This document shows, piece by piece, positions 11,278 through 49,405 of a stretch of DNA of 64,000 bases. The stretch is from assembly GCA_016875875.1 (NCBI GenBank), contig VGOP01000006.1, positions 72,773-136,772 of the forward strand, given 5' to 3'. Under the pieces are notes generated by a model, which saw nothing but the letters and a program-made list of their open reading frames with translations, had not been told where the DNA came from and did no database searches. Positions within the stretch are counted from its first letter, which is position 1; each line of letters begins with the position of its first letter. This DNA is from Chloroflexota bacterium. Lineage in GTDB: Bacteria > Chloroflexota > Dehalococcoidia > GIF9 > UBA5629. The translations under genes were made by a program, and so were the position numbers.

Positions 11278-12873
11278 TCATGCTGCCGCCTCAATCACTA
11301 CTGCCGTGCCTTTGCCAGACCTAGACTTTATTCTCAGGCTGCCACCCACCAACTGGATACGCTCTTGCATCCCAGCCAAGCCCAATCTACCTTGCTTCAC
11401 CAAGTCGCCGGTTGTTTCTGGAAGGTCGAATCCCTTGCCATTGTCCTTGACAGTTATTCTAATTTTCCCATCGCCGAACTCCACTGCGACCACAGCACTA
11501 GTCGCCTGAGCATGCCTCAAGGCATTTCTCAATGCTTCCTGGGCAACACGAAAAAGCACAAGCTCCACTTCGGAGGAAAATCTTCGGCTAACACCATGTA
11601 TACTAAACTTGACATTTATCCCTGAGCGTTTTCCTACGTCGGAGGCTAACCATTCTAGCGCTGGTACCAAGCCCAAGCGATCTAACGCTGGAGGACGCAA
11701 GTCCTGGCTTAACCGCCTCACATCTGCCATTATGTTGTTGATCTGCCCCCTCAAGATCTCCAATAGGATTCTCTTGTATTCAGACAACCCCTTATCACTG
11801 GAAGCAATATCATCTAGCTGACGCGCCAGGACAACCAAGGACTGAATGGTCTCATCGTGAAGTTCTCGAGCAATACGTTTTCTTTCTTCCTCTTGAGCCA
11901 TAGTGATTTGGCCTAAGTAAAAGCGTAAGCTCTCCTGCATTCGTTTCTCCTGGGTAACATCCCTGGCAATGTGCTGGAAACCAACAGGGCTTCCATCAAC
12001 TCCAACCAAGTTAGTAGTTAGCTTCAAAATAGCCTCAGCCCCTTCTTTTGTAATTAATCTCTGCTCATAAGGTTGAGCAACAGGCTCTCCTTGAAGCAGC
12101 CTTGCTCTAATATCTTTAGCTAGGTTCAAGCTTCCTTCAGAAAGGAAAGATTTAACATTCATGCAGCATAACTCCCCTACTTCGTATCCCGTAAGTCTGG
12201 CAGCTGCTGCATTAGATGACACAATATTTCCATCCATGTCATGAACCCAGATAGCGTCATGGGCATTCTGGAATAGCTCTCGATACCTTTCCTCAGATGC
12301 TCGCAATTGCTCTGCGACTTTATGCTCCTGTTCATAAAGGCGGGCATTTTCAATAGCAACGCCAATCTGGTTGCCTATAGCAGCAAGCAATTCCACCTCG
12401 TCTCGATTAAATTGACGGTGTCGATGCATAGCCACACAAATAGTACCCATGACCTTACCTTTGGATTCCAAAGGCACGATAATTTGAGACCGTATTTCTT
12501 CTTCCTTAACCGCCATTTTAGTCAATCTATTATCTTTTGAGGCGTCTTTTATAAACGTTGGCTCCCCAGTCTGAGCGACCATCCCGTTTAAACCATCACC
12601 CAGTTTCAGTCTGTTAACACTCTGGACAAATGAGTCTGAAACTCCTCTGTGGGCACTAAGAACAAGCTCGCCAGCTTCATTATCCAGAAGAAATATCAAT
12701 ACAACATCAACATTCATCACATCGATGATGCTATCGATGCTGCTGTTCAGAATCTGTTTTAAGTCCAGCGACTGAGAGACTACACTTGAGATGTAATTGA
12801 TAGCCGCAAGTCGGAGGTGGTGTTCACGCTGCCCACCCAACGATTTGAAGCCAAAAACCCGGCCTAGAAACAA
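11278..12873 (-). CDS. sensor histidine kinase (GAF-PAS-HisKA_3-HATPase)
   Basis: N-terminal GAF-like region, a PAS region (ERYRELFQNAHDAIWVHDMDG), the NarX-type H-box RIARELHDETIQSL, and an ATPase G-boxes region (DNGKGF...GLAGMQER...GKGT). Confidence 0.9.
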   Translation of the reverse strand: MFLGRVFGFKSLGGQREHHLRLAAINYISSVVSQSLDLKQILNSSIDSIIDVMNVDVVLIFLLDNEAGELVLSAHRGVSDSFVQSVNRLKLGDGLNGMVAQTGEPTFIKDASKDNRLTKMAVKEEEIRSQIIVPLESKGKVMGTICVAMHRHRQFNRDEVELLAAIGNQIGVAIENARLYEQEHKVAEQLRASEERYRELFQNAHDAIWVHDMDGNIVSSNAAAARLTGYEVGELCCMNVKSFLSEGSLNLAKDIRARLLQGEPVAQPYEQRLITKEGAEAILKLTTNLVGVDGSPVGFQHIARDVTQEKRMQESLRFYLGQITMAQEEERKRIARELHDETIQSLVVLARQLDDIASSDKGLSEYKRILLEILRGQINNIMADVRRLSQDLRPPALDRLGLVPALEWLASDVGKRSGINVKFSIHGVSRRFSSEVELVLFRVAQEALRNALRHAQATSAVVAVEFGDGKIRITVKDNGKGFDLPETTGDLVKQGRLGLAGMQERIQLVGGSLRIKSRSGKGTAVVIEAAA

Positions 12874-12940
12874 CCCTCACTCACCCCCCAAAGGGCTCTT
12901 TTCACAACAATATATCCCAGTCATTCGGAGGCCACAATCC

Positions 12941-13606
12941 TCAGGACACATCATCGAGAGTGACCCAACCTTCCTTCAAGGCATGTACTACAGCCTCAGT
13001 ACGTGAGCCAACCCGAAGCTTATTGAAGATATTTGCCAAGTGCCCCTGCACAGTGCGTACACTTAAGCAAAGCTCATCGGCAATATCCTTGTTGCCCAAA
13101 CCTCTGGTTACCAGCTTCAACACCTCCATCTCTCGCTCGGTGAGCAGTTCCAAGGTTTTCTTTTCACGTGGCTTGCTGGAAACGTTGGCGAACCGGTTTA
13201 GAACTTTACGGGCGACTGAGGGATGAAGCACCGACTCCCCAGCATGTACCGCCCGAATAGCGTCGACTATCTCATGACCACGAACGCTCTTCAACATGTA
13301 ACCAGCAGCCCCTGCCTCCAGCAAACCGAAGACAAATTGATCATCGTCATAGGCACTAAGCACTAGCACCGCTACAGTGGGGCATAGAGCTTTTATCTGT
13401 CTGGTCGCCTCAATGCCATCTAGTTTGGGCATGGCGACATCAACTAAAGCAACATCTGGCTTTAAGTCGGAGGCAAGTCTCACTGCTTCCTCGCCATCCC
13501 CAGCCTCAGCCACTACTTCCAAATCCGACTCCTGCTCCAGAATGCGGCGTGTGCCCTCACGGACAAATGCGTGGTCATCTGCAATCAAAATCTTTATCGT
13601 TTTCAA
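12941..13606 (-). CDS. NarL/LuxR-family response regulator
   Basis: Receiver domain (ILIADDH...DVAMPKLDG...SAYDD) plus a LuxR HTH (LTEREMEVLKLVTRGLGNKDIADELCLSVRTVQGHLANIFNKL). Confidence 0.95.
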   Translation of the reverse strand: MKTIKILIADDHAFVREGTRRILEQESDLEVVAEAGDGEEAVRLASDLKPDVALVDVAMPKLDGIEATRQIKALCPTVAVLVLSAYDDDQFVFGLLEAGAAGYMLKSVRGHEIVDAIRAVHAGESVLHPSVARKVLNRFANVSSKPREKKTLELLTEREMEVLKLVTRGLGNKDIADELCLSVRTVQGHLANIFNKLRVGSRTEAVVHALKEGWVTLDDVS

Positions 13607-14563: not shown

Positions 14564-15435
14564 AATATTATAGTTACTTCCCTGGCTGCTGTATGCACGA
14601 TGACAGCCCGATGTACGACACGTCGGCCAGAGCTGTCGCCCAAGTTTTGGATATGGAACTCATCGAGCTTGATGACTGGAATTGTTGTGGTTCCACACCC
14701 TACACAGTTGTTGACGAATTGTCTGCCTTTTGCTGCTGCGCCCGCAACTTGGCACTGGCTGAAAAAAGAGGCTTTGACCTGGTGGCAGCCTGTAGCGACT
14801 GCTACCTCATACTTAATAGGACCGACCAGCACTTCAAGGAATACCCGGAGATAAAAACCAGAATAAACGAAGCCCTCGCCGCTGGTGGGCTGGAATATCA
14901 TGGGACTGTCAGGGTACGACATATCCTCGATGTCTTTGCCAATGATGTCAGCAGTGAGGACATCAAAGCCAAGGTCAAAGTGGACCTCGGTGGGTTGAAA
15001 GTAGCTCCTTATTATGGCTGCCAGGTAGTGCGGCCGACACCTAACTTCGATGATCCAGAATATCCTCAATCACTGGAGCACCTGATAGAAGGCTTAGGAG
15101 CCGAAGCTGTACCCTATCCGTTGAAAACTCGCTGCTGTGGTGGTTCCCTGATACTATCCGAAGAGAGTATAGCGCTAGGATTAATGCACAAGCTACTCGA
15201 TAACGCGTTAAGCAACGGCACCGAGTGCATTGTGACCGTATGCCCATTCTGCCAACTAAATCTGGATGCTTACCAAAGCATGGTCAACAGGAAGTTCAAG
15301 ACAAATTTCAACCTGCCTATTTTGTTCTTCACCCAGCTCATGGGTATAGCCTTTGGAATCGAGAGCAAAGCTGTAGGTCTGAAATATAACATAGTTCCAG
15401 CCGATAAAGTATTAGCCTCATATGTCAGAAAATGA
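14560..15435 (+). CDS. hdrB: heterodisulfide reductase subunit B
   Basis: Two CCG domains (DDWNCCGS..., ...[15 protein letters not shown]). 291 aa. Confidence 0.9.
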
Positions 15436-15448
15436 TAAGGAGGAGCGA

Positions 15449-17410
15449 ATGGAGCCGAAAATAGGTGTCTATATCTGCCACTGCGGAGCCAATATCGCCG
15501 CCACAGTTGATGTCGAGAAAGTAACTGAGTCCGCCAAAAGCTTACCATCGGTATTTGTGGCCAGAGATTACAAATTCGTGTGCTCGGACCCAGGACAAGA
15601 GCTGATAAAGAATGACATCAAAGAACTGGGACTTAACCGCATTGTGGTGGCCTCATGTTCACCAAGATTGCATGAACAAACTTTCAGACGAACATTAGCC
15701 AGTGCCGGTCTGAATCCATACCTTTTCGAGATGGCAAATATCCGTGAGCACTGCTCCTGGGTACATGAGGACGGTGGAAGAGCAACTGAGAAAGCCAAGG
15801 CGCTTGTCAGCGCTGCAGTAAGGCGAGTTGCTCACCACATACCACTGGAAACTAAAGAAGTTCCGTTTAATCCTAACACGTTGGTAGTCGGCGGAGGCAT
15901 TGCTGGTATACAGGCAGCGCTGGAGATCGCCGACTCGGGCCATAAAGTCTATCTGGTAGAGCGGGAACCTTCGATCGGCGGCCACATGGCTCAACTCGAT
16001 AAAACCTTTCCCACCTTAGACTGTTCCGCCTGAATACTCACACCTAAGATGGCCTCGGTGAGGTCACACGAAAACATCGAGATGATGACTTATAGCGAAG
16101 TCATGGAAGTTTCAGGCTATGTGGGTAACTTCAAGGTCAAGATTAGAAAGAAGCCACGCTACATAGACGAAAGCAAATGCACCGGCTGTGGCACCTGCCA
16201 GGATAAATGCCCCATGAAAGCAGACAGCGAATTCGATTTTGGGATTGGCACAAGAAAGGTAATATATACACCATTCCCGCAGGCGGTACCAAATATCCCG
16301 ATAATTGACCGAGAGCGTTGCACCTATTTCCTCAAAGGCAAGTGTAGAGCCTGCGAGAAATTTTGCGAGGCCAAGGCAATTGACTTCGAGCAGACAGAGA
16401 AGATAATCGACCTGGATGTGGGCTCGATCATCGTTGCTACAGGCTTCGATTCCTTTGATCCCTCCCCAATGTCTCAATTCGGTTATGGACGATACGATGA
16501 CGTTATCACCGGCTTCCAGTTCGAGAGAATGAGCAGTGCTTCGGGACCCACCGGAGGTAAGATATTGCTCAAAGACGGCTCAGAGCCACGAAGCATAGCC
16601 ATACTGCACTGCATTGGCAGCCGCGACCTCAACTATCACGAATATTGCTCTCGTGTCTGCTGCATGTATTCGCTCAAGTTCGCTCACCTAATTAGGGAAA
16701 AAATCCACGACGCCGAAATCTATGACCTTTACATTGACCTCCGCTGCTTCGGCAAAGGCTACGAGGAATTCTACAACCGCCTTCAGGAGGAGGGGGTCAA
16801 CTTCATCAGGGGCCGTGCTGGAGAGGTTACCGATGTAGCCGAAACTCCCGAAGAAAAGGGAAGACTCGTGGTTCTCTGTGAAGACACCTTAATCGGTCGG
16901 CAACGGCGCCTTCCCGTTGACATGGTAATTCTGAGCAATGCCTTGGAGCCTCGTTCTGATGCCAAAGAGGTAGCCAAGCTCTTTTCTATCAGCCGAAGCA
17001 GAGATGGCTTCTTCCTGGAGAAGCATCCCAAGCTTGACCCCGTGGCCACAACAACAGATGGCGTTTTCGTCACCGGTTGCTGTCAGGGACCAAAAGACAT
17101 TCCCGACACCGTAGCCCAGGCCTCAGCCGCCGCCGCCCGTGTCATGGCCATGATATGCAAAGGCAGTGTTGAGATTGAGGCAGCTACTGCGGTTATCGAA
17201 GAGGAGTTCTGTTCCGGATGCAAGACTTGCATTTCGCTCTGCCCTTATAATGCGATTTCCTTCAACGAGGATAAGAAAGTATCTATTATCAACGAAGCTC
17301 TATGCAAAGGTTGCGGCACCTGTACTGCCGCCTGCCCCAGCGGAGCTATCACCAGCCGACATTTCACCGTTAAGCAGATTATGGCACAGCTGGAAGGAGT
17401 GATGATATGA
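15449..17410 (+). CDS. hdrA: heterodisulfide reductase subunit A, selenocysteine-containing (in-frame TGA at 16031..16033)
   Basis: Track ORFs 15422..16033 and 16049..17410 share one frame and are separated only by a TGA. The joined protein reads ...[27 protein letters not shown]. It is collinear with the Cys paralogue at 19250 (...[27 protein letters not shown]). Both are 653 aa. The start is the ATG at 15449 behind AAGGAGGAG. Confidence 0.9.
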
Positions 17411-19249: not shown

Positions 19250-21211
19250 ATGGCGAAACCCAAGATAGGTGTATATGTTTGCCACTGCGGGTCTAATATC
19301 GCCGGTACCATTGATGTACCGCAGGTAGTCGAGTTTGCTAAGGGGCTGCCGGCGGTAGCAATTGCCCGCGAATACAAATTTATGTGTTCTGACCCGGGAC
19401 AGAGCATGATTAAGGATGACATTAATAACTTAAAGCTTAACCGGGTAGTGGTTGCCTCCTGTTCTCCACTACTGCACGAGCAAACCTTCCGCCGCGCAGT
19501 TCAAGAGGCCGGAATCAATCCCTATCTCTTCGAGATGGCAAATATCAGAGAACACTGCTCCTGGACCACCGAAGACCACGGAGAAGCCACCGAGAAAGCC
19601 AAAGCCCTGGTAAGCGCTGCAGTAAAACGCGTCTATTATCATCAGCCTTTAGAGACAAGAGAGGTTCCGGTCAATCCAAATACCTTAATTGTTGGTGGCG
19701 GCATCGCCGGGATTCAGGCTGCATTAGAAATCGCCGATGCCGGGCACAAAGTTTATCTGGTCGAGAAAGACCCGAGCATCGGTGGACACATGATTCAATT
19801 CGACAAAACCTTCCCCACCCTGGACTGCTCTGCCTGCATCCTCACCCCCAAGATGACCTCAGCAGGCTCTCATCATAACATCGAATTAATGACCCACAGT
19901 GAAGTCAAGGAAATCGCCGGTTTTATCGGCAACTTCAAAGCCAAGATTCGTAAAAAAGCTAGATTTGTTGATGAGTCCAAATGCAATGGCTGCGGTGTGT
20001 GCATGGAAAAATGTCCATGGAAAGCAGATAGCGAGTTTGACCTCGGATTAAGCCAGCGAAAAGCTATCTACACCCCATTCCCACAAGCAGTACCTAATAT
20101 CCCCGTGATAGACAAGGAGAGCTGTGCCTATTTCCTCAAAGGCAAATGCCGTGCCTGCGAAAAGTTCTGCGAGAGAGAAGCCATTGACTTCGAGCAGCAG
20201 GATAAAATTGTCGAGATAGATGTAGGCAACATAATCATAGCCACCGGCTATGACCCGTTCGACCCCACCCCCATCATCAAGTACGGTTATGGTAAATTTC
20301 CTAACGTTGTCACCGGCCTCGAATTCGAGAGAATCTGTAATTCCGTAGGACCTACCGGTGGCAAAATCGTTCTTAAAGACGGTTCTGAGCCAAAGAGCAT
20401 AGCTATCATCCACTGTGTCGGCAGCCGCGATGAAAATTACCATGAATACTGTTCTCGCGTCTGCTGTATGTATGCCCTCAAATACTCCCACCTTATAAAA
20501 GAAAAAACAAAAGCCGATGTCTATCAGATGTATATAGATATGCGCTGCTTTGGCAAGGGATACGAGGAATTCTATAAGCGACTATCTAAAGAAGGGGTTA
20601 CTTTCATACGAGGCAAGCCAGCCGAGGTTAGTGATAGGGCAATGAGTGAAGAGGAGAAAGGAAAACTGATTGTCGTCGGCGAGGACAGTTTACTTGGAAC
20701 CATTGTCAGAGTCCCGGTCGACATGGTTATCCTGTGCATAGCACTAGAAGCCCGTGCTGATGCCAAGAACGTTGCCCAGTTGTTCAGTATAAGCCAAGGG
20801 GCCGATGGCTTCTTTATAGAGAGACATCCCAAACTTGACCCGGTAGCAACTATGACTGAGGGTGTCTTTATCGCCGGCTGCTGCCAGAGTCCTAAAGACA
20901 TACCTGACACCGTAGCCCAGGCCTCAGCCGCAGCTACTCGCGTCTTGGCCTTGATAAGCAAGGGGAAAGTTGAGCTAGAGGCAGCCGTCGCAGTAATTGA
21001 TGAAGAGAAATGCTCTGGCTGCCGAATCTGCAATCTACTCTGTCCCTACAACGCTATTGACTTTATTGAAAAAGACGAGGTATCTCGAATTAACGAAGCT
21101 CTGTGTAAGGGTTGCGGTACTTGCGTCGCCGCCTGTCCTAGCGCAGCTATAACACATAAGCATTTTACCACTGAAGAAATTATGGCAGAAATCGAGGGGG
21201 TATTAGTATGA
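19250..21211 (+). CDS. hdrA: heterodisulfide reductase subunit A (Cys form)
   Basis: 653 aa. FAD-binding [17 protein letters not shown], several 4Fe-4S motifs ([36 protein letters not shown]), and Cys where the upstream copy has TGA. Confidence 0.95.
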
Positions 21212-24603: not shown

Positions 24604-25854
24604 TCACCACTTTTCTTGAGATAATCTGGAGGTAAGCCAGGTACGCAAAGGTTCATCTAACATACCAACCCTGGATTCCAGCCAGCGGACGTCCCCGCTC
24701 TCCAGTGCAGCTTTTGCTTCCGGTGTTAGATTATAAGCCTTGAGAGCCTGATTAGGATTGTCCGCCAGTTTAGCCAAGAACTTAGTGTCATCTCTAGCTC
24801 TAGCTAACACCGATATGAGGGCATTAGTCTCCGCATCCAGATAGGCTGCTTGCTGAGGCTGCAATTGTGGCTTAGAAAACATACCTGCAAGCCAGGGCCT
24901 AGCAGCTACTGCTTCAGCAGCACGTTCCTTGCGAAGGTATATTAGCCAATATATACTACCTACAAACGTGCCGCCGACGATATTGCCCAGAGTAACTGGA
25001 AACAGATTACCGATAAGGCCAGCGACATTGAGATTAGCCACCTGGCTTGCAGTCACGCCAGCTACTTCAAGGACTTTGGCCTGTCCCGCCATAGCTATGC
25101 CCATTGGAATGAAGTACATGTTAGCTATGCTATGTTCAAAACCACAAGCCACAAATGCAGTTATAGGAAAAAGGATGGCGAATACCTTATCAATGGTGGA
25201 GCGAGCACCAAAACAAAGCCAGACAGCTAGACAGACAAGCGTATTGCACAGAATTCCACGAGCAAAAGCCGTCCAAAAAGCCAAGTTGACTTTGGCATTA
25301 GCTATTGATAAGGCATTGACACCCACTTTAAAACCATCCAGTGCCCAAAACTGACTATAAAAGACTACAAGCACTAAGAGCAGTGACCCAACAAGATTGG
25401 CGAAATAAACTATGCCCCAGTTTTTAAACAATTGAGACAGCCTTATCTTGCCACTGGCTCGACCAGCTACCATAAGCGCATTACCAGTGAACAGCTCGGC
25501 TCCAGCTAACACCACGAGAATAAGTCCTAGGCAGAACACAACTCCGCCGAGCAGCTTGGTCAGGCCAAAACCAACCTGGATATCAGTAGTAACCAGAGTG
25601 CAGAACATGGCTCCCAAACCAATAAAGAACCCCGCCAATATTCCTAGCAGCGAGATAGACCAGATATTGCCATTAGCTTTGGTTACTCCCACACCTTCCA
25701 TTTTTACCGCCATCTCCGCCGGCGGTCTACAGTCAGTAGTGGCACAGATTTTCAGCTCTTCCAAGGCAGTCTGTAAGCGAGACACCTCCATAGTTGGAAG
25801 CTTCCCCACCTCCAGTCTTTGTATTTCCTTACCTGATGACTTTAAGTCTGCCAT
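24604..25854 (-). CDS. formate/nitrite transporter (FNT) family channel with a C-terminal ~100-aa soluble extension homologous to the two small SQEKW proteins
   Basis: FNT signatures (LAGAELFTGN, ACGFEHSIANMYFIP). I chose the ATG at 25854 (MADLKSS...) behind GGGGGAGG, not the track start at 25965, which overlaps the upstream gene. The tail ...ISVLARARDDTKFLAKLADNPNQALKAYNLTPEAKAALESGDVRWLESRVGMLDEPLRTWLTSRLSQEKW aligns with 25871..26200 and 30126..30452. Confidence 0.85.
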   Translation of the reverse strand: MADLKSSGKEIQRLEVGKLPTMEVSRLQTALEELKICATTDCRPPAEMAVKMEGVGVTKANGNIWSISLLGILAGFFIGLGAMFCTLVTTDIQVGFGLTKLLGGVVFCLGLILVVLAGAELFTGNALMVAGRASGKIRLSQLFKNWGIVYFANLVGSLLLVLVVFYSQFWALDGFKVGVNALSIANAKVNLAFWTAFARGILCNTLVCLAVWLCFGARSTIDKVFAILFPITAFVACGFEHSIANMYFIPMGIAMAGQAKVLEVAGVTASQVANLNVAGLIGNLFPVTLGNIVGGTFVGSIYWLIYLRKERAAEAVAARPWLAGMFSKPQLQPQQAAYLDAETNALISVLARARDDTKFLAKLADNPNQALKAYNLTPEAKAALESGDVRWLESRVGMLDEPLRTWLTSRLSQEKW

Positions 25855-25870
25855 GATTCCATTCCTCCCC

Positions 25871-26200
25871 CTACCATTTCTCCTGAGACATTCGGTACCA
25901 CAACCAGGTTGACAGACGCTTGTCCAGTTTCCCCACCCAACTCTCAATCTTCTGGATATCACCACTAGCTAGAGCTGCTTTCTCTTCCTGTGTCAATGTG
26001 TAATACTCCTTAAGTGCTTCGTGAGGATTATCTGCCAGACGGGACATGAATTCAGGCTCGTCGGCTGCTCTGGCCAGCACAGACAATACTGCCCACCTTC
26101 CGGTCAAGCCCTCTTTTGGGACAACTGTAGGTGCACTAATAAGTCTGTCAAGTGCTTCGGGGGTAGTTTCTTCGGTCTTTCTATGAACTTCCTTAGCCAT
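25871..26200 (-). CDS. small helical protein ending in SQEKW (paralogue 1; NHLP/LigA-like appearance)
   Basis: 109 aa. A strong SD (AAGGAGG) lies 7 nt before the ATG. The stop is 16 nt before the FNT start. Over the last 87 residues I counted 9 differences from the protein at 30126..30452. Confidence 0.8.
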   Translation of the reverse strand: MAKEVHRKTEETTPEALDRLISAPTVVPKEGLTGRWAVLSVLARAADEPEFMSRLADNPHEALKEYYTLTQEEKAALASGDIQKIESWVGKLDKRLSTWLWYRMSQEKW

Positions 26201-26238
26201 TTTGACACCTCCTTCTTTATTTTGGTTTCCACCCTAAA

Positions 26239-26303
26239 TGTAGCAACTATCAAAGTATCTCTCATCGGTCTTCAGCTCTAATTGCGATAGGGCTTTAGGT
26301 ATG
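26239..26303 (-). promoter_or_regulatory. conserved ~65-bp upstream element, copy A (promoter/operator or 5' leader of paralogue 1)
   Basis: It aligns with 30496..30561 at a similar distance from the start codon. Shared blocks (plus-strand reading) are TGTAGCAA, TCATCGGTCTT, AGC.CTAATT.CGATAG and CTTT. Confidence 0.55.
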
Positions 26304-26455
26304 TACAAAAGTATCATGTTGGCCGAACAAGCAGTGCTGCTATTTGGAATCCTACGGATGCTCAAAACAAGTGTGCTTTGGCCATTAGTACTAGTTCTTT
26401 TAGGCTCCGCAATTGACACTGGGTTGACTTTATTTTAGAATGCAAGCCAAATAAA

Positions 26456-26576
26456 GAGGGGGGTGGACGGTGACAAACGCGGCGTGTTCGGCTATTACGT
26501 CAAGGGGGCAAGGCACAGGCTCGGGGTCAACTGCTTTGAAGGAATTGTCTGTCACCGCCCACTCGGTACCCTCCTC
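26456..26576. other. unassigned ~120-nt element with a long interrupted closing helix (possible structured RNA; strand undetermined)
   Basis: GAGGGGGG...TGGACGGTGACA (26456-26475) pairs with TGTCACCGCCCA...CCCTCCTC (26549-26576) around a G/C-rich ~70-nt interior. It lies in the 533-bp gap between the satP stop and the paralogue-1 start. The only ORF listed in that gap (26234..26419) is unconvincing and does not overlap the element. Confidence 0.4.
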
Positions 26577-26733
26577 TATTAAGGCATCACACCTACAAGT
26601 TGAATTAAGTTAATGCCACCGAGTTTAACAATTAATTCCAGATTACCTTGCTCATATTTATTTGTTAATAGCAACTCCCTGGTTTCCAAGGTATTACAAC
26701 TAGTCCAAACAGCTAAAATATGTCTCTAACAAT

Positions 26734-27309
26734 TTATTTGGAAATCAGGCCGATAGGGAACACCCACCTTCCGAACTTGTCATTCAACACCACGGCTGCT
26801 GATCCATAGGCTGCTGCAGCACCACAGCACAGTCCTTCTATTCCTGCTACCACTGCTGGCAGAATACCAAAAAACACGGCTGCAAGCAGGAAGAACAGTA
26901 TCGTCAAAGTGGCGAACACGAAGATGTGCATCACTGACATTCTAAAGGTGCCTATGGTCATATAACCGGTGAATATACCCCAGCATATGAACAACCAGGC
27001 AAGTCCGGAGCTCTCCATCTCTACTACACCAGTCCACTGCAACAGGAAGTAAAAACTCAGTCCTAGCCAGAACAAACCATATGAAGTGAATGCAGTCAGA
27101 CCAAAGGTGTCACCACGACGAGCGTCTATTATGCCGGCAATAACCTGAGCCACACCCCCCCAGAAAAATCCGTATACCAGTGGCAGGGTACCTTCAATCA
27201 AACCGAGATTGTGTATCTGTAACAAAATAGTATTCAGGCCAAATCCAGCTAACCCTAAGGCACCTGGATTAGCCCACTTAACATCATTTTGAGTCATTAC
27301 CTTTGCCAT
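26734..27309 (-). CDS. satP: acetate/succinate channel, GPR1/FUN34/YaaH (SatP) family
   Basis: NPGALGLAGFGLNTILLQIHN and six hydrophobic helices, as is typical of YaaH/SatP. It lies directly downstream of acs. Confidence 0.85.
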   Translation of the reverse strand: MAKVMTQNDVKWANPGALGLAGFGLNTILLQIHNLGLIEGTLPLVYGFFWGGVAQVIAGIIDARRGDTFGLTAFTSYGLFWLGLSFYFLLQWTGVVEMESSGLAWLFICWGIFTGYMTIGTFRMSVMHIFVFATLTILFFLLAAVFFGILPAVVAGIEGLCCGAAAAYGSAAVVLNDKFGRWVFPIGLISK

Positions 27310-27383
27310 AAAAGTACCTCCTTTCTTAGAATTATCTTATATTGGTCGGAACCAGATACAGATTGGTCCGACCAGAAAAGACT

Positions 27384-29351
27384 CTAGATTCTCTCCTTAA
27401 CCAGTATATCAACCACCGAGGGGTCAGCCAGAGTAGTGGTATCACCCAATTGCTCTACGTCACCAGCAGCAATCTTGGTCAATATTCTCCTCATAATCTT
27501 GCCGCTCCTGGTCTTGGGCAAAGCATCAGCAAATTGAATCTTGTCTGGTGTAGCTATGGGGCCAATCTCTTTGCGAACATGGGCTACCAGTTCTTTCTTA
27601 AGCTCTTCGGACTTTACCACGCTAGCTTTTAGAGTAACAAAAGCATATATGCCTTGCCCTTTTATCTCATGGGGCATGCCAACAACTGCAGATTCTGCCA
27701 CCTTATCATGAGACACCAGAGCACTTTCGACCTCGGCCGTGCCTATGCGATGACCTGACACATTAATAACATCATCTATACGACCCATTAACCAGTAGAA
27801 CCCGTCTTCGTCTACCCTAGCTCCGTCTCCTGTTGTATACACGCCAGGGAACCGAACAAAGTAAGTGTTCTTGAACCTCTCAGGGTCACCATAGACCCGC
27901 CGCATCAGACCCGGCCAAGGTTTTTTAATCACCAAGTAACCGCCCTCATTCACATCAGCAACGGAACCATCCTCCCTAAGCACGGCTGGCTCAACCCCAG
28001 GAAATGGTAACGTCGCTGACCCTGGCTTAAGTGGAGTAGAACCGGGTAAAGGAGTGATTAATACTCCGCCTGTTTCTGTTTGCCACCAGGTATCTACAAT
28101 CGGACACTTACCTTTACCTATTACATTGTAGTACCAAATCCAAGCCTCGGGATTTATAGGTTCGCCCACTGTTCCTAAGAGACGCAAGGAGGTCAAATCA
28201 TGCTTTTCAGGCCACTCATCTCCCTCCCTCATTATGGCCCGTAGAGCAGTGGGGGCAGTGTAGAAAATACTGACTTGGTACTTTTCGACAATGTCCCAGA
28301 ACCTATCAGGATGGGGATAGTTTGGTACCCCTTCAAACATAAGGACCGTTGCTCCGTAAGACAAGGGGCCATAAACGATATATGAGTGCCCAGTCACCCA
28401 ACCAATGTCGGCTGTGCACCAGAAAGTGTCTTCTTCCTTCATGTCAAAAATCCACTTAAAGGTCTGATAGCAGTACAATAGGTAACCTGCCTGAGTATGG
28501 AGAACGCCTTTCGGTTTCCCGGTGCTACCACTGGTGTACAAGATAAACAGAGGGTCTTCAGCATCCATAACCTCAGGCTCACAGTGTGCTTTAACGCCAT
28601 CAGCAGCCATCTCGTTATCCCACCAATAGTCACGCCCTTCTTTCATGGCTACTTCAATATTAGCCCTCTTGACCACTATTACATCTTTTACGTCAGGGCA
28701 GGCCGCAAGGGCTTCATCAGCATTGTCTTTACTCCGGATAATCTTACCGCCACGATAGTAACCATCTACACAAATGAGTACCGTAGACCCGCAGTCCAGC
28801 ATCCTATCCTTCAAGGCGTCAGCGCTAAAACCACCAAACACAACACTATGAATAGCACCGATCCTGGTACAGGCCAACATAGCAATCGGTAATTCGACAA
28901 TCATAGGTAGATAAATAGATACCCTATCTCCCTTTTTAACGCCATGTTTTTTGAGCACATTAGCAAATTTGCACACCTCTTGATACAGCTGTTGATAGGT
29001 GAGTATCTTGCTGTCACCAATGTCACCTTCCCAAATCAGTGCTGCCTTATTTCTTCTCCATGTCCTAACATGCCTGTCCAAGCAATTTTGACAAACATTG
29101 AGTTTGCCGCCCACAAACCATTCGTGCTTGCCCTCTTTGAAATCATCAACAAGCACCTTATCCCATTTCTTGTACCAATCCAGCTGCTCTGCCATCTCTC
29201 CCCAGAATCCCTCGGGGTCGTTAATGGACCATTGATAGACGTCTTTATACTCGACCAGATTCCTTATGTAAGCCTTTTCACTGACTTCCCTTGGAGGATT
29301 AAAAACTCTTTTCTCCCCCATCATTGAGGTGATTGTTTTAATATCTGCCAT
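27384..29351 (-). CDS. acs: acetyl-CoA synthetase (AMP-forming)
   Basis: 655 aa. AMP-binding motif [20 protein letters not shown], and C-terminal SGKIMRR with the conserved acylatable Lys context. Confidence 0.95.
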
Positions 29352-29394
29352 TGCTAAACTCCTTTCTAGACTTGGGCATTTTCAATTACCTGAT

Positions 29395-29850
29395 CTACAC
29401 CTGAGAAGTGACACCCAATAACTGAGCATATGCCTGGCGCAGTCTAGTTGCTACCACACGTGCAATCCCCCTGGAGACTCTGCAGCCTATCTCAGGCTTG
29501 GTGATGCACAAAGCGGATAACTCTTGCCCATCAAAGGTCAACACCTTTGTACTCTCTAAAGCTTTTACCGTAGCCGTGCAAATATATGGGTCGAGCATAG
29601 CTGACCAACCGAATGCCTCGTAATCAGTTACCGCTTGAACCTGGCGTTGGGCAAGTGGCCCAACTTCCAGAATAATCCCTACCGTGCCGTTTTCAATCAC
29701 GTAGAGTTTTTGCTCCTTGCAACCCTGCTTGCAGATAATCGACCCAGCACCAAATTCTTCATGGTCGCACATTTTTTCCACTTCGCGAAGCTGCTTATCA
29801 TCCAAAGTCCTGAACATTTCGCATTTTCTCAACACATCAAACTTCTTCAT
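29395..29850 (-). CDS. cyclic-nucleotide-binding domain protein (effector domain only, no HTH)
   Basis: 151 aa with a CAP_ED-like pattern (FRTLDDKQLREVEKMC...FGAGSIICKQG...LYVIENGTV...EAFGWSAML). No DNA-binding domain follows. Confidence 0.7.
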   Translation of the reverse strand: MKKFDVLRKCEMFRTLDDKQLREVEKMCDHEEFGAGSIICKQGCKEQKLYVIENGTVGIILEVGPLAQRQVQAVTDYEAFGWSAMLDPYICTATVKALESTKVLTFDGQELSALCITKPEIGCRVSRGIARVVATRLRQAYAQLLGVTSQV

Positions 29851-29934
29851 TTGTTCAACCTCCTAATTTCTATTTGCCTTTGCCGCAAGACACCAATTGC
29901 TCCTCAGCTGCTACCACAGCTATGTACTTTACCC

Positions 29935-30111
29935 TCAGCCACGGCAGCCGGAATCAGTCATAGACCTAGCTCCTGTGCGGTCAGAGCGCAACCTGAATAC
30001 CCTCTGAGCGACACTGTAAAGACCACGCAAGCTCGAAAACAGAAAAAATGCTGTAAGACACAGGGCAATAGAAATCACAAAACCTACAACTGCAATAAAG
30101 TGCAAATTCAT
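29935..30111 (-). CDS. micro membrane protein (single predicted TM helix), translationally adjacent to paralogue 2
   Basis: MNLHFIAVVGFVISIALCLTAFFLFSSL... has one hydrophobic helix followed by a basic tail. AAGGAG directly follows the paralogue-2 stop and lies ~10 nt before this ATG. The track ORF starts at 30132. Confidence 0.45.
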   Translation of the reverse strand: MNLHFIAVVGFVISIALCLTAFFLFSSLRGLYSVAQRVFRLRSDRTGARSMTDSGCRG

Positions 30112-30125
30112 TGTTTCCATCTCCT

Positions 30126-30452
30126 TTACCACTTCTCCTGTGACAGTCTATACAACAGCCAGGTTGACAAACGCCTGTCTAGCTTGCCCACCCAACTCTC
30201 AATTTTCTGTATATCACCGCTGGCTAAAGCCGCTTTTTCTTCCTGAGTCAATGTGTAGTATTCCTTAAGGGCTACGTGAGGGTCATCTGCCAAGCGGGAC
30301 ATGAACTCAGGTTCATCAGCTGCCCGGACAAGCACAGATAGTATCGCCCATCTCCCAGCCAAGCCATCCTTCGGAACAACGGTAGGCGCTTTGATCAGCT
30401 CCTCCATTGCTTCGGTAGTTTCTTCGGTCTTCCCACGAACCATCTTATCCAT
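30126..30452 (-). CDS. small helical protein ending in SQEKW (paralogue 2)
   Basis: ...KTEETTEAMEELIKAPTVVPKDGLAGRWAILSVLVRAADEPEFMSRLADDPHVALKEYYTLTQEEKAALASGDIQKIESWVGKLDRRLSTWLLYRLSQEKW. I chose the ATG at 30452, 8 nt after GGAG. The GTG at 30461 and the ATG at 30443 are alternatives. Confidence 0.8.
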   Translation of the reverse strand: MDKMVRGKTEETTEAMEELIKAPTVVPKDGLAGRWAILSVLVRAADEPEFMSRLADDPHVALKEYYTLTQEEKAALASGDIQKIESWVGKLDRRLSTWLLYRLSQEKW

Positions 30453-30495
30453 TCCTGTCACTCCATTGGCTTTTGACTCGCTTTTCTGCTTTTAC

Positions 30496-30561
30496 TGTAG
30501 CAATTAGCAATTGGGCTATCATCGGTCTTTAGCCCTAATTTCGATAGTACTTTGGCCTATG
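30496..30561 (-). promoter_or_regulatory. conserved ~65-bp upstream element, copy B (in the divergent region between paralogue 2 and the response regulator)
   Basis: See 26239..26303. About 47 of the first 60 aligned positions are identical by hand alignment. Confidence 0.55.
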
Positions 30562-30660
30562 CCTCAACCAAGGCATTCGAAGCGTCTGACCATGTGATTA
30601 TTGTTTCTTTCGGTTGATATACCTTATAATTGATATCAAACTGGCCGTGGGTTATAGAAA

Positions 30661-31350
30661 ATGAAGACGAAGACCAGAATTTTAATCGCCGATGACCATC
30701 CACTGCTGCGCGAAGCACTGTGCCAAGTATTTTCCAATCAAAAAGACATGGAGATAGTTGGCCAAGCAAATAATGGTGAGGAGGCTATCAACCTAACTTC
30801 CCAATTGAAGCCAGATATTCTAGTTATGGATATTATGATGCCAAAGTTCGATGGTCTTGAAGCTAGCCGACAGATTAAGAAAATTGCTCCCAATACTGCC
30901 ATATTAATTCTCACTGCCTACGATGACGACAATTATGTTCTTGGATTACTAGAGGCTGGAGCAACTGGTTACTTGATGAAGAGTGCTCGAGGACAAGACC
31001 TGGTAGAAGCCGTGCGAGCTATAAGAGCCGGCGAATCAGTACTTCACCCTAAAATCATTGAGAAGCTGCTCAAGCAAGCCATGGCTAAACCAGCAGAAAC
31101 TGTAGACCGCAAAATAAAGGACCTTCTGAGCGACCGGGAGATGGAAATGCTGAAGCTGTTGGCTACCGGAATGAGCAACAAAGAGATAGCCGACAAACTA
31201 TGTCTCAGCCTACGTACTGTCAAGGCTCACATGTCCAATATTTTCACCAAGATGAATGTCGCTTCGCGAAGTGAAGCTCTCGTTGAGGCCCTTAGAACAG
31301 GACTTCTTACCTTAAAAGATATCAAACAAGAAGCTACTCCAGAAGATTAG
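30661..31350 (+). CDS. NarL/LuxR-family response regulator (paralogue of 12941..13606)
   Basis: ILIADDHPLLREAL...DIMMPKFDG...TAYDDD, plus the LuxR HTH LSDREMEMLKLLATGMSNKEIADKLCLSLRTVKAHMSNIFTKM. Confidence 0.95.
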   Translation: MKTKTRILIADDHPLLREALCQVFSNQKDMEIVGQANNGEEAINLTSQLKPDILVMDIMMPKFDGLEASRQIKKIAPNTAILILTAYDDDNYVLGLLEAGATGYLMKSARGQDLVEAVRAIRAGESVLHPKIIEKLLKQAMAKPAETVDRKIKDLLSDREMEMLKLLATGMSNKEIADKLCLSLRTVKAHMSNIFTKMNVASRSEALVEALRTGLLTLKDIKQEATPED

Positions 31351-31413
31351 AATAGGCTAATGCTTGAATTAGTATCCGTACGCATAAATAGATGAGGAGA
31401 AACATTCGCAGCA

Positions 31414-32850
31414 ATGTCAGATAGATGGCGAATTTTCCACATCTGTTTGCTAACCCTCTTTTTCTTAGTTCTAACTCTATCTCATTACCACGAGCTTCTG
31501 GCCGGGATACCTATAGTAGGCGAGGTATCTATTACTTCGTCCCTTGGTTTATCAAGGCATGTCATAGAGCGATTCATTTACATCGTACTCGTAATCTATG
31601 CTGGCTGGTCACTGGGAATAATGTTCGGCATTGCTACATTGTTGGCCTCTGCTATCGCTATGCTACCTTGGGCACTATTTATATCCACTAATCCCATAGA
31701 CGCCATAACCGAGAGCATCGCTGCGCTTATTATCAGTGGCTTAAGCATTTCCCTAATTCAAATGCACCGCGGATGGTATCGGCAAAAACAAAGGCTGCGT
31801 GGAATCAAAGTGGCCTTAAGAACATCCCAACAAAACTACGAGGAGCTTTTTACTAATGCCAGTGATGCCATCTGGGTTCATGACCTTAACGGCAAGATAA
31901 TTATGGCCAATAAAGCCTGCGAAACAGTCAGTGGCTATTCCCCAGATGACGCAATAGGCAAAAATGTTTCCGAATTTATGTCCCCCGATGCGCTCAGTAT
32001 AGCCAGAGGAATCAAAATTAAGCTCATGAAGGGCCAAGCCATAGACCAGCGCTACGACCAAAGATTAATCAAAAAAGATGACTCAGAAGCTATTGTAGAA
32101 TTGTTTACCCGTCTAATCAGAGATGATGACGGCAAGCCCATCGCCTTTCAGAATATCGCTCGTGATGTGACTGAGGAAAGAAGACTGCGGGACAATCTCC
32201 GATTTCAAATTCACAAAACTCTCATGGCACAGGAAGAAGAGCGAAAACGCATTGCTCGGGAACTCCATGATGATATTGCCCAATCTATATTGTTATTGTC
32301 ACGCCAACTGGATATCCTTATATCCGGAGGTGCCCAGAATAGGCTGCCAAAAGCTTCAGTAGGCGAGCTAGAGTATATACAAAACATAGCCAACGAGACC
32401 TACAAAGGTCTGCAGCGCTACGCACGTGACCTGAGACCAAGCATTTTGGACCAGATGGGACTAGTGGCAGCATTGAATTGGCTGGCTGAGGAACTTAGTA
32501 AAGAACTGGGGACCAAAACTACGGTGAAAGCGGATAAATTGCCCCTACTCGCCTCAGAAACAGAGCTAGCCATGTTTCGCATTGCGCAAGAGGCATTGAA
32601 CAACGTTCGGAAGCATGCTCAAGCTTCCGAGGTCAACATTACAGTGAAAACTGATTCGAACAATATAAAGATGGCTATCACAGACAACGGCAAGGGCTTC
32701 TCGACACCCAGATTGACCGGGGATCTGGCAAGAGAGGGAAAACTCGGCGTCTTGGGCATGGAAGAGCGAGCACGTCTTATCGGAGGTGAGTTACACATAA
32801 AATCCGGGCCAGGCAAAGGTACAACTGTAATCGCCAAAGCACCTATTTAA
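31414..32850 (+). CDS. membrane-bound sensor histidine kinase (TM-PAS-HisKA_3-HATPase)
   Basis: Hydrophobic N-terminal ~125 aa, a PAS region (NYEELFTNASDAIWVHDLNGKI), the H-box RIARELHDDIAQSI, and an ATPase region (DNGKGF, GVLGMEER, GKGT). Confidence 0.9.
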   Translation: MSDRWRIFHICLLTLFFLVLTLSHYHELLAGIPIVGEVSITSSLGLSRHVIERFIYIVLVIYAGWSLGIMFGIATLLASAIAMLPWALFISTNPIDAITESIAALIISGLSISLIQMHRGWYRQKQRLRGIKVALRTSQQNYEELFTNASDAIWVHDLNGKIIMANKACETVSGYSPDDAIGKNVSEFMSPDALSIARGIKIKLMKGQAIDQRYDQRLIKKDDSEAIVELFTRLIRDDDGKPIAFQNIARDVTEERRLRDNLRFQIHKTLMAQEEERKRIARELHDDIAQSILLLSRQLDILISGGAQNRLPKASVGELEYIQNIANETYKGLQRYARDLRPSILDQMGLVAALNWLAEELSKELGTKTTVKADKLPLLASETELAMFRIAQEALNNVRKHAQASEVNITVKTDSNNIKMAITDNGKGFSTPRLTGDLAREGKLGVLGMEERARLIGGELHIKSGPGKGTTVIAKAPI

Positions 32851-47098: not shown

Positions 47099-48203
47099 AT
47101 GCAGGAAGAAAAGGATAAACTAGAAGCTCTGCAACATCGAATCTCAGACATAATGGTGCGTCTTTGACATTCCAAACAAGGAAATGGAAATCGCCAAGTT
47201 AGAGGCTGAAACCACTAAGCCAGACTTCTGGCTAGATCCAGCTAAGGCACAGTCCACAATGCGTCGGCTAGTAGCTACTAAGGATATGGCCCAGACCTGG
47301 CGTCAGCTAGAGAAGAAAGTCACTGATCTTATTGACATGACAATCTTAGCCATCGAAGAAAATGAACAATCTCTTCGAGAAGAAACCCAGCGAGACATAG
47401 AGGAAATAACCTCTCAACTCGATGAACTGGAAACCAGATTGCTTTTGAGTGACGAATATGACACCAGAGATGCCATATTAGCTGTGCATGCTGGCGCTGG
47501 CGGCACCGAGTCCCAGGACTGGGCAGAAATGCTGTTTAGAATGTACATGCGCTGGGCAGAACAGCGCAAATACAAAACCGAAATACTAGATACCTCCAGT
47601 GGTGAGGAGGCTGGTATCAAGAGTGCCACTGTGGAAATTAAAGGGGATTATGCTTATGGCTATTTAAAATCAGAGCACGGGGTCCACCGTTTAGTTCGCC
47701 TGTCCCCATTCGATGCCGACCATGCCCGTCATACTTCGTTCGTCCTGGTCGAAGTCCTTCCCGAAGCTGAAGAGGAAATAGATATCAAGGTAAATCCTGA
47801 GGATTTGAAAATAGATACCTTCAGGTCAAGCGGACCAGGCGGACAGCACATGCAAAAAACAAGCAGTGCTGTTAGAATAACTCATCTACCTACTGGACTA
47901 GTAGTGGCCTGTCAAAGTCAACGTTCTCAGCGTCAGAACAAAGAGAGCGCCCTAAAGGTGCTTTATGCTCGCCTTCTTGAACTAAAGCGCGCTGAAAAGG
48001 AGAGGGAAAAGGCTAAATTCAAAGGCGAACGCATTGAAGCTGGCTGGGGTAACCAAATTAGAAGCTATGTCCTCCATCCCTACCGAATGGTCAAAGACCA
48101 TCGCACTAATTACGAAACCAGTGATACCACCGCTGTCCTGGACGGAGAGCTTGATGATTTCATCACCGCCTATCTGCGTCACAAACTGGGAGAGGGAAAA
48201 TGA
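47099..48203 (+). CDS. prfB: peptide chain release factor 2, requires programmed +1 frameshift at 47162..47168
   Basis: Frame 1 reads MQEEKDKLEALQHRISDIMVRL then TGA (47165-67). After a +1 slip on CTT TGA C, the frame continues DIPNKEMEIAKLEAE... with the SPF (RLSPFD) and GGQ (SGPGGQHMQ) motifs. The track lists only 47184..48203. Confidence 0.95.
47162..47168 (+). promoter_or_regulatory. RF2 autoregulatory +1 frameshift site CTT TGA C
   Basis: Exact CUU UGA C heptamer. The downstream ORF is in the +1 frame (47166 is in phase with 47184). Confidence 0.9.
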
Positions 48204-49405
48204 CTAAATGGTTCATTCCGCTAATCCTGGCTATTATTCTATTTATTACACCGACGATTACCTATTCCCAAGACGGAATCTCTCTACTAGACAGCACTGC
48301 TGAGATATATTTCCCCTCTGCCTTAGTCTTCAAAATCAAGACCACAAGCCAGAGCAATATCACTAAAATACGTCTTCACTATCAAGTTGATAGAATGAAC
48401 TATGCTCAAGTTACTAGCGAAGCCTGGCCTGATTTCACGCCATCTCCAAAAGTGGGAACAGAATGGATATGGGATATGAGAAAAGCCAATCTGTTAGCCG
48501 GGGCCACAGTCAGATACTGGTGGACGATCGAAGATAAAACCGGGGATAGACTGATAACTCCCTCTAAGGTAATTCGCTTTGACGACCTCCGCTATTCCTG
48601 GCAAAAGTTAACTTCAGGGCAACTTAGCCTCTTCTGGTATAAAGGTAGTCAATCCTTTGCTGACGAACTGATGGCTGCTTGCAACCAGGCATTGGAAAGG
48701 CTGGCTAAAGACACCGGTGTCTATCCTGAAAGGCCTATAAGTATATTCATCTATGCCAGCACCAGAGACCTCCAGGGTGCCATGATTTTCCCACAAGAAT
48801 GGACAGGCGGTGTCGCTTTTACTGAATACGGCCTTATCGCCATTGGTGTTCCTGCAAATGAACTGGATTGGGGGAAAAAGGCTTTAGCTCACGAGCTGGG
48901 CCACATGGTAACTCATCAGATAACTTTCAGTCCCTACGGAGCCGTTCTACCCACCTGGCTAGATGAAGGCTTAGCCATGCACGCCGAAGGCGAACCAGAC
49001 CCCTATCTCCAGGCGTGGCTCAAAAAGGCAACCACTCAACAGAAACTCATTTCGGTACGCAGCCTATCCAGTCCATTTTCAGCCAAAACTGAAGAGGCCT
49101 ATATCTCTTATGCTGAAAGTCAAAGCCTGGTCGAATTCCTCATCCAAAACTATGGCAAAGATAAAATGCTTCACCTTCTAAATTTATTAAAAGAAGGTAA
49201 CTCTTGCGATGAAGCACTGACCGAGGTTTATGGGTTCGACCAGGATGGACTTGATGCACTATGGCGAAACTATATAACTAGCCACAAGCAATCGCAGCCT
49301 GGATTCCAGCATATCTCGCTGTGGGAGACCAGTCCAGAAACCTCCCTCTGGGATGAGACGCTGGGTAAACTGGTGACAGCAAACATACTAATAGAGGTGC
49401 CTTGA
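48200..49405 (+). CDS. secreted zinc metallopeptidase (MA clan, HExxH)
   Basis: N-terminal signal or TM segment (WFIPLILAIILFITPTITYS), and HELGH in ALAHELGHMVTH with a downstream WLDEGLA. Confidence 0.7.
   Translation: MTKWFIPLILAIILFITPTITYSQDGISLLDSTAEIYFPSALVFKIKTTSQSNITKIRLHYQVDRMNYAQVTSEAWPDFTPSPKVGTEWIWDMRKANLLAGATVRYWWTIEDKTGDRLITPSKVIRFDDLRYSWQKLTSGQLSLFWYKGSQSFADELMAACNQALERLAKDTGVYPERPISIFIYASTRDLQGAMIFPQEWTGGVAFTEYGLIAIGVPANELDWGKKALAHELGHMVTHQITFSPYGAVLPTWLDEGLAMHAEGEPDPYLQAWLKKATTQQKLISVRSLSSPFSAKTEEAYISYAESQSLVEFLIQNYGKDKMLHLLNLLKEGNSCDEALTEVYGFDQDGLDALWRNYITSHKQSQPGFQHISLWETSPETSLWDETLGKLVTANILIEVP

Follow-up and report, generated by a model that had tools for sequence, protein, structure and literature searches.

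Gene organization of the SQEKW locus

The window analysed here is a 64-kb stretch of contig VGOP01000006.1 from a Chloroflexota bacterium, and the locus under study is a block within it that carries two carboxylate channels, an acetyl-CoA synthetase, a two-component system and three copies of a small helical domain referred to as SQEKW (SQ in the names of fusions). Genes were called from a map of open reading frames (ORFs) plus Pfam and NCBIfam scans of the window. A sequence-only reading of the same DNA had listed an FNT channel fused to SQEKW, a SatP channel, AMP-forming acetyl-CoA synthetase (Acs), a stand-alone cNMP-fold protein, a small protein with a single transmembrane (TM) helix, hereafter micro-TM, two free SQEKW proteins (SQ1 and SQ2), and a divergently transcribed histidine kinase (HK) with a NarL-type response regulator (RR). 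All of these were found by ORF map, Pfam/NCBIfam and tblastn (Table 1), and they are kept as genes in related genomes. The related loci come from scans of GTDB representative genomes, which gave about 100 relevant loci from at least six phyla; one of these scans used an alignment of five SQEKW sequences as the query.

Table 1. Genes and promoter/operator blocks of the SQEKW locus, with positions in the 64-kb window
Feature	Position	Strand	Size and supporting matches
FNT (FocA-like) channel with cytoplasmic C-terminal SQEKW domain	24604-25854	-	416 aa; PF01226 243 bits
Free SQEKW protein 1 (SQ1)	25871-26200	-	109 aa; NF038399 44.4 bits (cutoff 40)
Promoter/operator block, copy 1, before SQ1	26236-26330	-	core 26259-26290, 32 nt
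SatP/AceTr acetate (succinate) channel	26734-27309	-	NF038013 163.1 bits (cutoff 50); PF01184 91 bits
AMP-forming acetyl-CoA synthetase (Acs)	27384-29351	-	TIGR02188 1012.8 bits (cutoff 724.95)
Stand-alone CAP/cNMP-fold effector-domain protein	29395-29850	-	151 aa; PF00027 42.4 bits (cutoff 27.5)
Micro-TM protein, one TM helix	29935-30120 (or 30132)	-	about 58-61 aa
Free SQEKW protein 2 (SQ2), heading the Acs/SatP operon	30126-30452 (ORF to 30461)	-	NF038399 40.6 bits
Promoter/operator block, copy 2, before SQ2	30493-30587	-	core 30516-30547; inside the 208 nt that separate the divergent SQ2 and RR genes
NarL/GerE-type response regulator	30661-31350	+	PF00072 and PF00196
Membrane histidine kinase, PAS + HisKA_3 + HATPase	31414-32850	+	Pfam

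The FNT ORF extends in full over 24604-25965, and the likeliest true start is the ATG at 25854, which is preceded by GGGGAGG. With this start the apparent overlap between the FNT and SQ1 genes vanishes, the stop codon of SQ1 lies 16 nt from the FNT start, and the protein length agrees with that of the FNT-SQ orthologues (405-417 aa), which were found in 26 loci. The SQEKW domain of the channel corresponds to its last ~72 residues (window 24607-24822). For SQ2, the probable start is the ATG at 30452, giving a protein of 108 aa. The Shine-Dalgarno sequence of the micro-TM gene had been placed directly after the SQ2 stop codon, and AAGGAG was indeed detected there.

By tblastn the window contains exactly three SQEKW copies. 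SQ1 and SQ2 are 84-89% identical to each other, and the FNT tail shares 59-60% identity with either free copy (E ~1e-23). A candidate fourth copy at 60747-60965 (E = 0.018) was rejected as a chance match, its reading frame being stop-ridden and antisense to the gene for CCA-adding enzyme. A formate dehydrogenase (FDH) was looked for in the 64-kb window and none was found. The kinase, with HisKA_3 and HATPase domains, and the regulator, with REC and GerE domains, together have the composition of a HisKA_3/NarL-type two-component system. The N-terminus of the kinase consists of ~125 aa of TM segments with no large outside loop, followed by the PAS, HisKA_3 and HATPase domains.

Family and fold of the SQEKW domain

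SQEKW is a helical, net acidic domain of ~72 residues. It had been regarded as unclassified, but it falls in the LigA-like/NHLP superfamily and is already named by NCBI through NF038399 ("Os1348 family NHLP clan protein"). SQ1 and SQ2 are marginal passes of this model (Table 1), while the FNT tail fails with 27.5 bits; the matches to Pfam Frankia_peptide (PF14407) are weak and below the cutoff. A phmmer search of the PDB with a single SQEKW sequence gave nothing significant, while a profile built from 35 diverse SQEKW domains matched the docking domain of SonA (E = 0.0016), Os1348 (6LK7; E = 0.0033) and nitrile hydratase alpha (E = 0.05). Six helices are seen in the AlphaFold2 model (pLDDT 80), in which the last three residues have low pLDDT, and its best Foldseek matches were SonA, Os1348 and the clasp domain of OphA. 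The best structure matches, which are LigA-like docking domains, gave TM-scores of 0.56-0.72 when normalised either way, with an rmsd of ~2 Å over ~50 residues. The ECOD "LigA-like domain" X-group joins LigA, nitrile hydratase alpha, Nif11 and Frankia_peptide, and SQEKW agrees with this group in both profile and fold, with weak Foldseek E-values that are expected because the query has only 73 residues.

The domain forms the C-terminal end of the protein in 113 of 123 full-length instances, nearly all finishing with QE-x-W. Of three internal copies that were checked, two have lost the terminal Trp. The most conserved stretch is the extreme C-terminus (…RLSQEKW). Near-invariant positions are R67, W63 and W73, Arg is the consensus at position 8, and most of the conserved positions belong to the hydrophobic core. 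Judging from the model, the QE-x-W-COOH end is probably flexible.

The database name raises the possibility that the free SQEKW proteins are precursors of ribosomally synthesized and post-translationally modified peptides (RiPPs) of the NHLP/Os1348/Frankia_peptide type, with the transport genes as incidental neighbours. The NF038399 scores, the weak PF14407 matches, the name of this type that NCBI gives to one homologue, and the influence of Os1348 on antibiotic activity all point that way. We nevertheless hold this reading to be very improbable, since it is contradicted by the lack of a maturase or exporter context, by the conserved C-terminus without a GG cleavage motif, and by the presence of the same domain at the end of a 416-aa channel and a 987-aa dehydrogenase. 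The conserved neighbourhood has no gene for a GNAT, HEXXH peptidase, SagB/YcaO, ATP-grasp or C39-exporter protein; the C-terminus is not a variable core rich in Cys, Ser or Thr; and identity stays at 75-93% over many species. The context of an Os1348-type RiPP (GNAT, HEXXH/MA peptidase, SagB-type dehydrogenase and efflux system) is absent from the window and from the about 100 related loci, which show FNT, FDH, Acs and two-component genes. When the whole window was searched for RiPP maturases, the only finds were one Peptidase_MA_2 gene at a distance of 18 kb and one radical-SAM gene at 20 kb, both outside the ~10 kb around the SQEKW genes that is covered by the related loci. The Peptidase_MA_2 protein (48200-49405, plus strand, 268 bits) shares its Pfam family with part of Os1350 of the Os1348 cluster; it is judged to be unrelated because of its distance and its position between prfB and radC.

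Distribution and fusions of SQEKW

A large protein database contains 1222 close SQEKW homologues, nearly all of ~108 aa, which fall into 328 clusters at 50% identity. Among the 120 homologues listed, every source name is Chloroflexota/Dehalococcoidia. The longer members include fusions of the types FNT-SQ, FdhA-SQ, SQ-NuoE, REC-SQ, REC-REC-SQ, HTH-SQ-SQ (P0121) and FeS protein-SQ-SQ. The domain is attached to the C-terminus of FNT, the C-terminus of FdhA and the N-terminus of NuoE.

These fusions bear on the possibility that SQEKW is a sensor of a small molecule such as formate, acetate or bicarbonate, which would control the protein attached to it, with the free copies reporting to the kinase. 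HTH-SQ-SQ is laid out like a one-component regulator, a DNA-binding domain plus a sensor; the domain is strictly tied to one metabolic theme; and the nearly invariant Arg and Trp residues (R67, W63, W73), with the consensus Arg at position 8, would suit ligand binding. However, a net acidic, all-helical domain of this size offers no evident pocket, its conserved positions lie mostly in the hydrophobic core, the solved relatives are protein-docking domains, and in REC-SQ the domain takes the output position. We therefore consider a sensor role unlikely.

Two observations on the fused genes are recorded here. Firstly, an operon of REC, REC-SQ and REC-FNT was found in a Spirochaetota metagenome-assembled genome (MAG) (L056:7109-9602) and in a Hyphomicrobiales MAG (L061:6916-9447). 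The FNT of these operons bears an N-terminal receiver domain and, from this architecture, would be a channel controlled by phosphorylation. Secondly, the FdhA-SQ genes of L040, L041, L089, L094 and L096-L098 are split into ORFs of 376-395 aa and 606-607 aa. For L040 and L041 just the 606-aa part was seen, and this ORF begins right after the conserved Cys of …CARLCHAS…, presumably the Mo/W ligand. These split genes probably encode selenocysteine formate dehydrogenases.

Gene neighbourhoods of SQEKW across genomes

The free SQEKW gene directly heads an operon in 74 of the 85 distinct cases. The gene following it (n=85) is FNT-SQ in 26 cases, FNT without the domain in 8, NuoE/NuoF in 22, Acs, cNMP-like or micro-TM in 17, and unlabelled in 11. 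A divergent NarL-type regulator gene lies upstream of the free SQEKW gene in 49 of the 85. Within 5 kb, FNT or FDH was found in 53 of 65 loci and an HK-RR pair in 34 of 65, many of the other contigs ending early. By our own estimate there is about one FNT gene and one FDH gene per genome, and the linkage of SQEKW to these genes is thus not attributable to chance.

Three arrangements were recognized in Dehalococcoidia, in each of which the HK and RR genes are divergent from a free SQEKW gene. This gene is followed by FNT-SQ in the first arrangement; by NuoE-like, NuoF-like and the 987-aa FdhA-SQ, with MobA adjacent, in the second; and by Acs in the third, which includes Dehalococcoidaceae. In Anaerolineae, Thermoleophilia, Planctomycetota and Syntrophorhabdus, the free SQEKW gene adjoins an untagged FNT or NuoE/NuoF/FDH, often together with HK-RR. 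One MAG possesses both of the tagged types, FNT-SQ and FDH-SQ (L037 and L038/L085).

The comparison agrees with the proposal in the sequence-only reading that the placement of SQEKW is non-random, as it is linked in several phyla to genes for carboxylate channels and activation and to a dedicated two-component system. As to the carboxylate involved, the proposed link is strongest and widest for formate, comprising FNT and also a NuoE/NuoF/FdhA-type FDH that the earlier reading had not listed, while the link to SatP is weaker. The co-occurrence with Acs is real but limited to some lineages of Dehalococcoidia.

The layout of several loci was recorded separately. In L045 (2189-9451) and L052 (3788-12133), the free SQEKW gene stands behind genes for a PhoR-like kinase, a regulator and Usp, and genes for a Pst-like ABC or Na/Pi-type transporter follow. 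The same order of kinase, regulator, Usp and SQEKW genes is found in L049 (3759-13846), followed by FNT and then by ORFs of Pst-like sizes. In L030 (3442-7542) and L039 (3418-7470), ORFs of 1350-1366 aa adjoin the HK gene, and HK-RR-SQ-FNT-SQ is located on the other side; the FdhA part of these ORFs is ~52% identical to the FdhA of L024, and they have ~450 extra residues and no SQEKW tail.

Given this gene order, SQEKW could also be a constitutive structural or assembly subunit, for instance one that stabilises or localises FNT pentamers or the FDH complex, with no part in signalling and with its operon-head position setting the stoichiometry. The spacing of 16 nt between the free SQEKW gene and FNT-SQ suggests 1:1 co-production, and three different subunits of the formate machinery carry the domain as a fusion. 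Left unexplained by such a role are the fusions to receiver and HTH domains, and also the free SQEKW genes heading Acs operons that lack any SQ-tagged protein; moreover, many FNT and FDH proteins of other phyla do without SQEKW. A purely structural role is accordingly rated as improbable, about on a par with the sensor role.

Shared promoter/operator block

Near-identical copies of a block were found 55-100 nt upstream of the start codons of SQ1 and SQ2 (Table 1). The cores of the two copies in the window differ at 4 of 32 positions, and a consensus pattern was built from both. The block holds repeats of the CYAAAG type, one of which is inverted, and then GACCGATGAGAG, 17 nt and TACATT (copy 1) or TACAGT. 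The core was detected upstream of free SQEKW genes in 17 loci, and the block is kept where SQ2 is absent and Acs, cNMP-like or micro-TM leads the operon. Distant Dehalococcoidia, and the majority of the Anaerolineae loci examined, likewise have the layout CGATG(A/G)NNA - 17 nt - TANANT.

From its layout we read the block as putative activator sites that directly adjoin a weak −35 element (ATGAGA), with a −10 element, and the NarL-type regulator would be the protein that binds to it. A generic scan for sigma-70 promoters and terminators gave results not above shuffled expectation. An RNA leader or riboswitch upstream of the SQEKW genes was considered and dropped. The Rfam search of the upstream block gave no match at E ≤ 1, RNAalifold on 23 block sequences predicted zero pairs, and the variable left arm showed no compensatory change; since neither an RNA structure nor an Rfam match was found, the block is handled as a DNA promoter/operator.

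cNMP-like and micro-TM proteins

The sequence-only reading had treated the cNMP-fold protein as an orphan sensor, and had grouped this protein and micro-TM with SQEKW. Both points call for revision. The protein has the fold of a cNMP-binding domain (PF00027), but its phosphate-binding cassette reads GWSAM...PYICTATV, a feature conserved in 18 orthologues, while the canonical cassette is G-E-x-A-L…P-R-[ST]-A. The canonical Glu and Arg are thus lost, and the protein is probably not a cyclic-nucleotide sensor. From its sequence it is probably an effector domain for another ligand or partner, and it possibly regulates Acs. The protein is highly conserved, and its gene was detected in the closest relatives alone, in every case together with Acs; a scan with this gene returned the same loci again plus unrelated Bacteroidota matches at 25% identity.

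Orthologues of micro-TM (41-64% identity) are located directly after SQ2 in 9-10 related loci. Its TM helix is followed by a basic tail that terminates in ...C-R-G, and the protein has no family match in Pfam and NCBIfam. Like the cNMP-like gene, it is restricted to the closest relatives and travels with Acs. Both genes are additions to the Acs operon that belong to a single narrow lineage, and they are not tied to SQEKW generally.

Comparison with known systems

The nearest functional precedent is the gating of E. coli FocA by its cytoplasmic partner protein PflB (PMC11841067). In the present locus, as in E. coli, the FNT channel would bear an element dedicated to protein interaction on its cytoplasmic face, and its gene shares a transcription unit with a function in formate metabolism. 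The element is an N-terminal helix in FocA, whereas in the present locus the putative element is a separate folded C-terminal domain, of which a free paralogue is encoded directly upstream, and the linked enzyme is a NuoE/NuoF/FdhA-type dehydrogenase instead of pyruvate formate-lyase.

The two-component systems CrbS/CrbR and MxtR/ErdR control acs and an acetate permease in Vibrio and Pseudomonas, and as in these systems a NarL/LuxR-type regulator and a membrane kinase are encoded beside acs and an acetate transporter. The matches to the ErdR, MctR and MctS models are partial and far below the equivalog cutoffs (86 against 390, 141 against 300 and 149 against 700, respectively). CrbS and MxtR carry an SLC5-type sensor domain at the kinase N-terminus. 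In contrast, residues 1-140 of the present kinase gave no Pfam match and no transporter-like domain, Pfam detecting only PAS, HisKA_3 and HATPase. The regulon differs also in that it includes formate genes and SQEKW proteins.

For the domain itself, the relatives of known structure are Os1348 and the docking domains of borosin precursors. The OphA domain works as a clasp in the OphA dimer. Together with SonA it provides the best structure matches of SQEKW, SonA being also the best profile match, but SQEKW has no methyltransferase partner and no core peptide, and it possesses extra C-terminal helices and the QE-x-W end. The titles of its structure entries describe SonA as bound to SonM in a heteromeric complex. 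The prototype of NF038399, Os1348 of Pseudomonas sp. Os17 (PDB 6LK7), is a six-helix protein that crystallised as a stable homodimer, its last six residues being disordered. Its gene belongs to a GNAT/HEXXH-peptidase/SagB-type cluster beside an efflux pump, and the protein has been linked to antibiotic activity. SQEKW is likewise small and all-helical, belongs to the same HMM family and has Os1348 as its second match in both the profile and Foldseek searches, but the cluster context of Os1348 is missing from SQEKW loci and the TM-score is low.

A proposed two-component-controlled formate/acetate regulon

Taking the observed gene content, domain family, fusions, conserved gene order and shared promoter block together, we lean, by a modest degree, towards the view that the block is a regulon for formate/acetate uptake and activation in an anaerobic Dehalococcoidia-type Chloroflexota, controlled by the two-component system and using SQEKW as a protein–protein adaptor. 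The intramembrane/PAS kinase and the NarL-type regulator would drive two operons, each with its own copy of one promoter/operator: one with SQ2, micro-TM, cNMP-like, Acs and SatP, and the other with SQ1 and FNT-SQEKW. Each of these opens with a free SQEKW gene. With its six-helix LigA-like/NHLP fold, SQEKW would be an adaptor and not a peptide precursor. It may pair with another SQEKW (the free copy with the tail of the channel or enzyme, in the manner of the Os1348 homodimer), with a receiver domain or with partners of both kinds. Such pairing would connect the signalling system with the formate channel, a cytoplasmic NAD-type FDH and the Acs operon. Possible effects are gating or marking of the cytoplasmic face of the channel and feedback of the transport or enzyme status to the kinase/regulator.

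Protein–protein adaptor is the most likely role that the sequences suggest for SQEKW, with partners of the kinds just named. This role is suggested by the fusions to a channel, two dehydrogenase subunits, receiver domains and an HTH protein, by the docking role of every solved relative, by the tight pairing of the free copy with its tagged partner (the 16-nt gap to FNT-SQ) and the tandem SQ-SQ proteins, and by the conserved, flexible C-terminal QE-x-W.

Several points weigh against this view. The structural matches behind the predicted docking of SQEKW to a partner are weak (Foldseek E ~2; TM-score to Os1348 0.47). The HTH-SQ-SQ architecture would fit a ligand-sensor domain too. Formate as the substrate of the FNT channel is deduced from the FDH and MobA neighbours, and both focA equivalogs score under their cutoffs (TIGR04060, 249.6 against 290.1; TIGR00790, 221.8 against 232.3). 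The three Anaerolineae/Caldilineae loci L045, L049 and L052 place SQEKW in a PhoR-like HK/Usp/Pst-like ABC setting, a context that goes beyond formate or acetate, and in Desulfobacterales there are REC-SQ genes with only a kinase nearby. Finally, no FDH-SQ was seen in the closest complete relative (CP070642.1, L001) by a tail-based scan with exact peptide patterns only; a simple bridge from FNT to FDH is therefore unlikely to be general, within the limits of that pattern search.

The earlier suggestion of an uncharacterised regulatory layer on carboxylate channels stands largely for SQEKW, in agreement with its fusions to FNT and to receiver domains, and weakly for the cNMP-like and micro-TM proteins; action on the channels themselves would follow by inference. 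A wider proposal, which we put forward only tentatively, is that SQEKW is the adaptor of an unrecognised signalling network linking formate channels, cytoplasmic FDH, Acs operons, receiver proteins and an HTH factor through SQEKW pairing and QE-x-W. If this were true, the system would represent partner-switching or flux-sensing in at least six bacterial phyla, with the channel or enzyme itself reporting to the two-component system.

Genomic surroundings in the window

Upstream of the locus are genes for HdrCB, HdrA and the small and large subunits of a [NiFe]-hydrogenase, read as Mvh-type by context, plus its maturation protease; downstream are NadC and CbiMNQO. These neighbours fit an H2- and formate-using anaerobe of the Dehalococcoidia. 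The HdrA-like gene at 15422-17410 (plus strand) has an in-frame TGA at 16031-16033 within the motif LDCSA-TGA-ILTPKM, and the same TGA split is found in the HdrA homologues of L004 and L022, while the paralogue at 19250-21211 is uninterrupted. The product of the former probably contains selenocysteine. A second HisKA_3 kinase (GAF-PAS) and a NarL-type regulator are encoded at 11278-13606 (minus strand), divergent from the HdrC/HdrB/HdrA operon, and this pair may constitute a separate redox or hydrogen regulon. A protein of the histone-deacetylase family (AcuC-like) is encoded at 56512-57549 (plus strand), 27 kb from acs; AcuC-like enzymes deacetylate Acs in some bacteria.

Implications

The fold family of SQEKW is known, while its deployment in formate and acetate metabolism is undescribed in the literature searched. 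Its genomic context corrects a database name that steers annotators to RiPP biosynthesis, and the SQEKW-led operons together with the promoter block provide a genomic marker of formate/acetate regulons in metagenomes. In anaerobic and syntrophic communities, formate and acetate serve as central currencies, and Dehalococcoidia and Anaerolineae are abundant, mostly uncultured bacteria of the subsurface. The gating of FNT channels and their metabolic coupling are understood solely for FocA–PflB of E. coli, to which SQEKW adds a second, directly testable model of the coupling between channel, enzyme and sensor.

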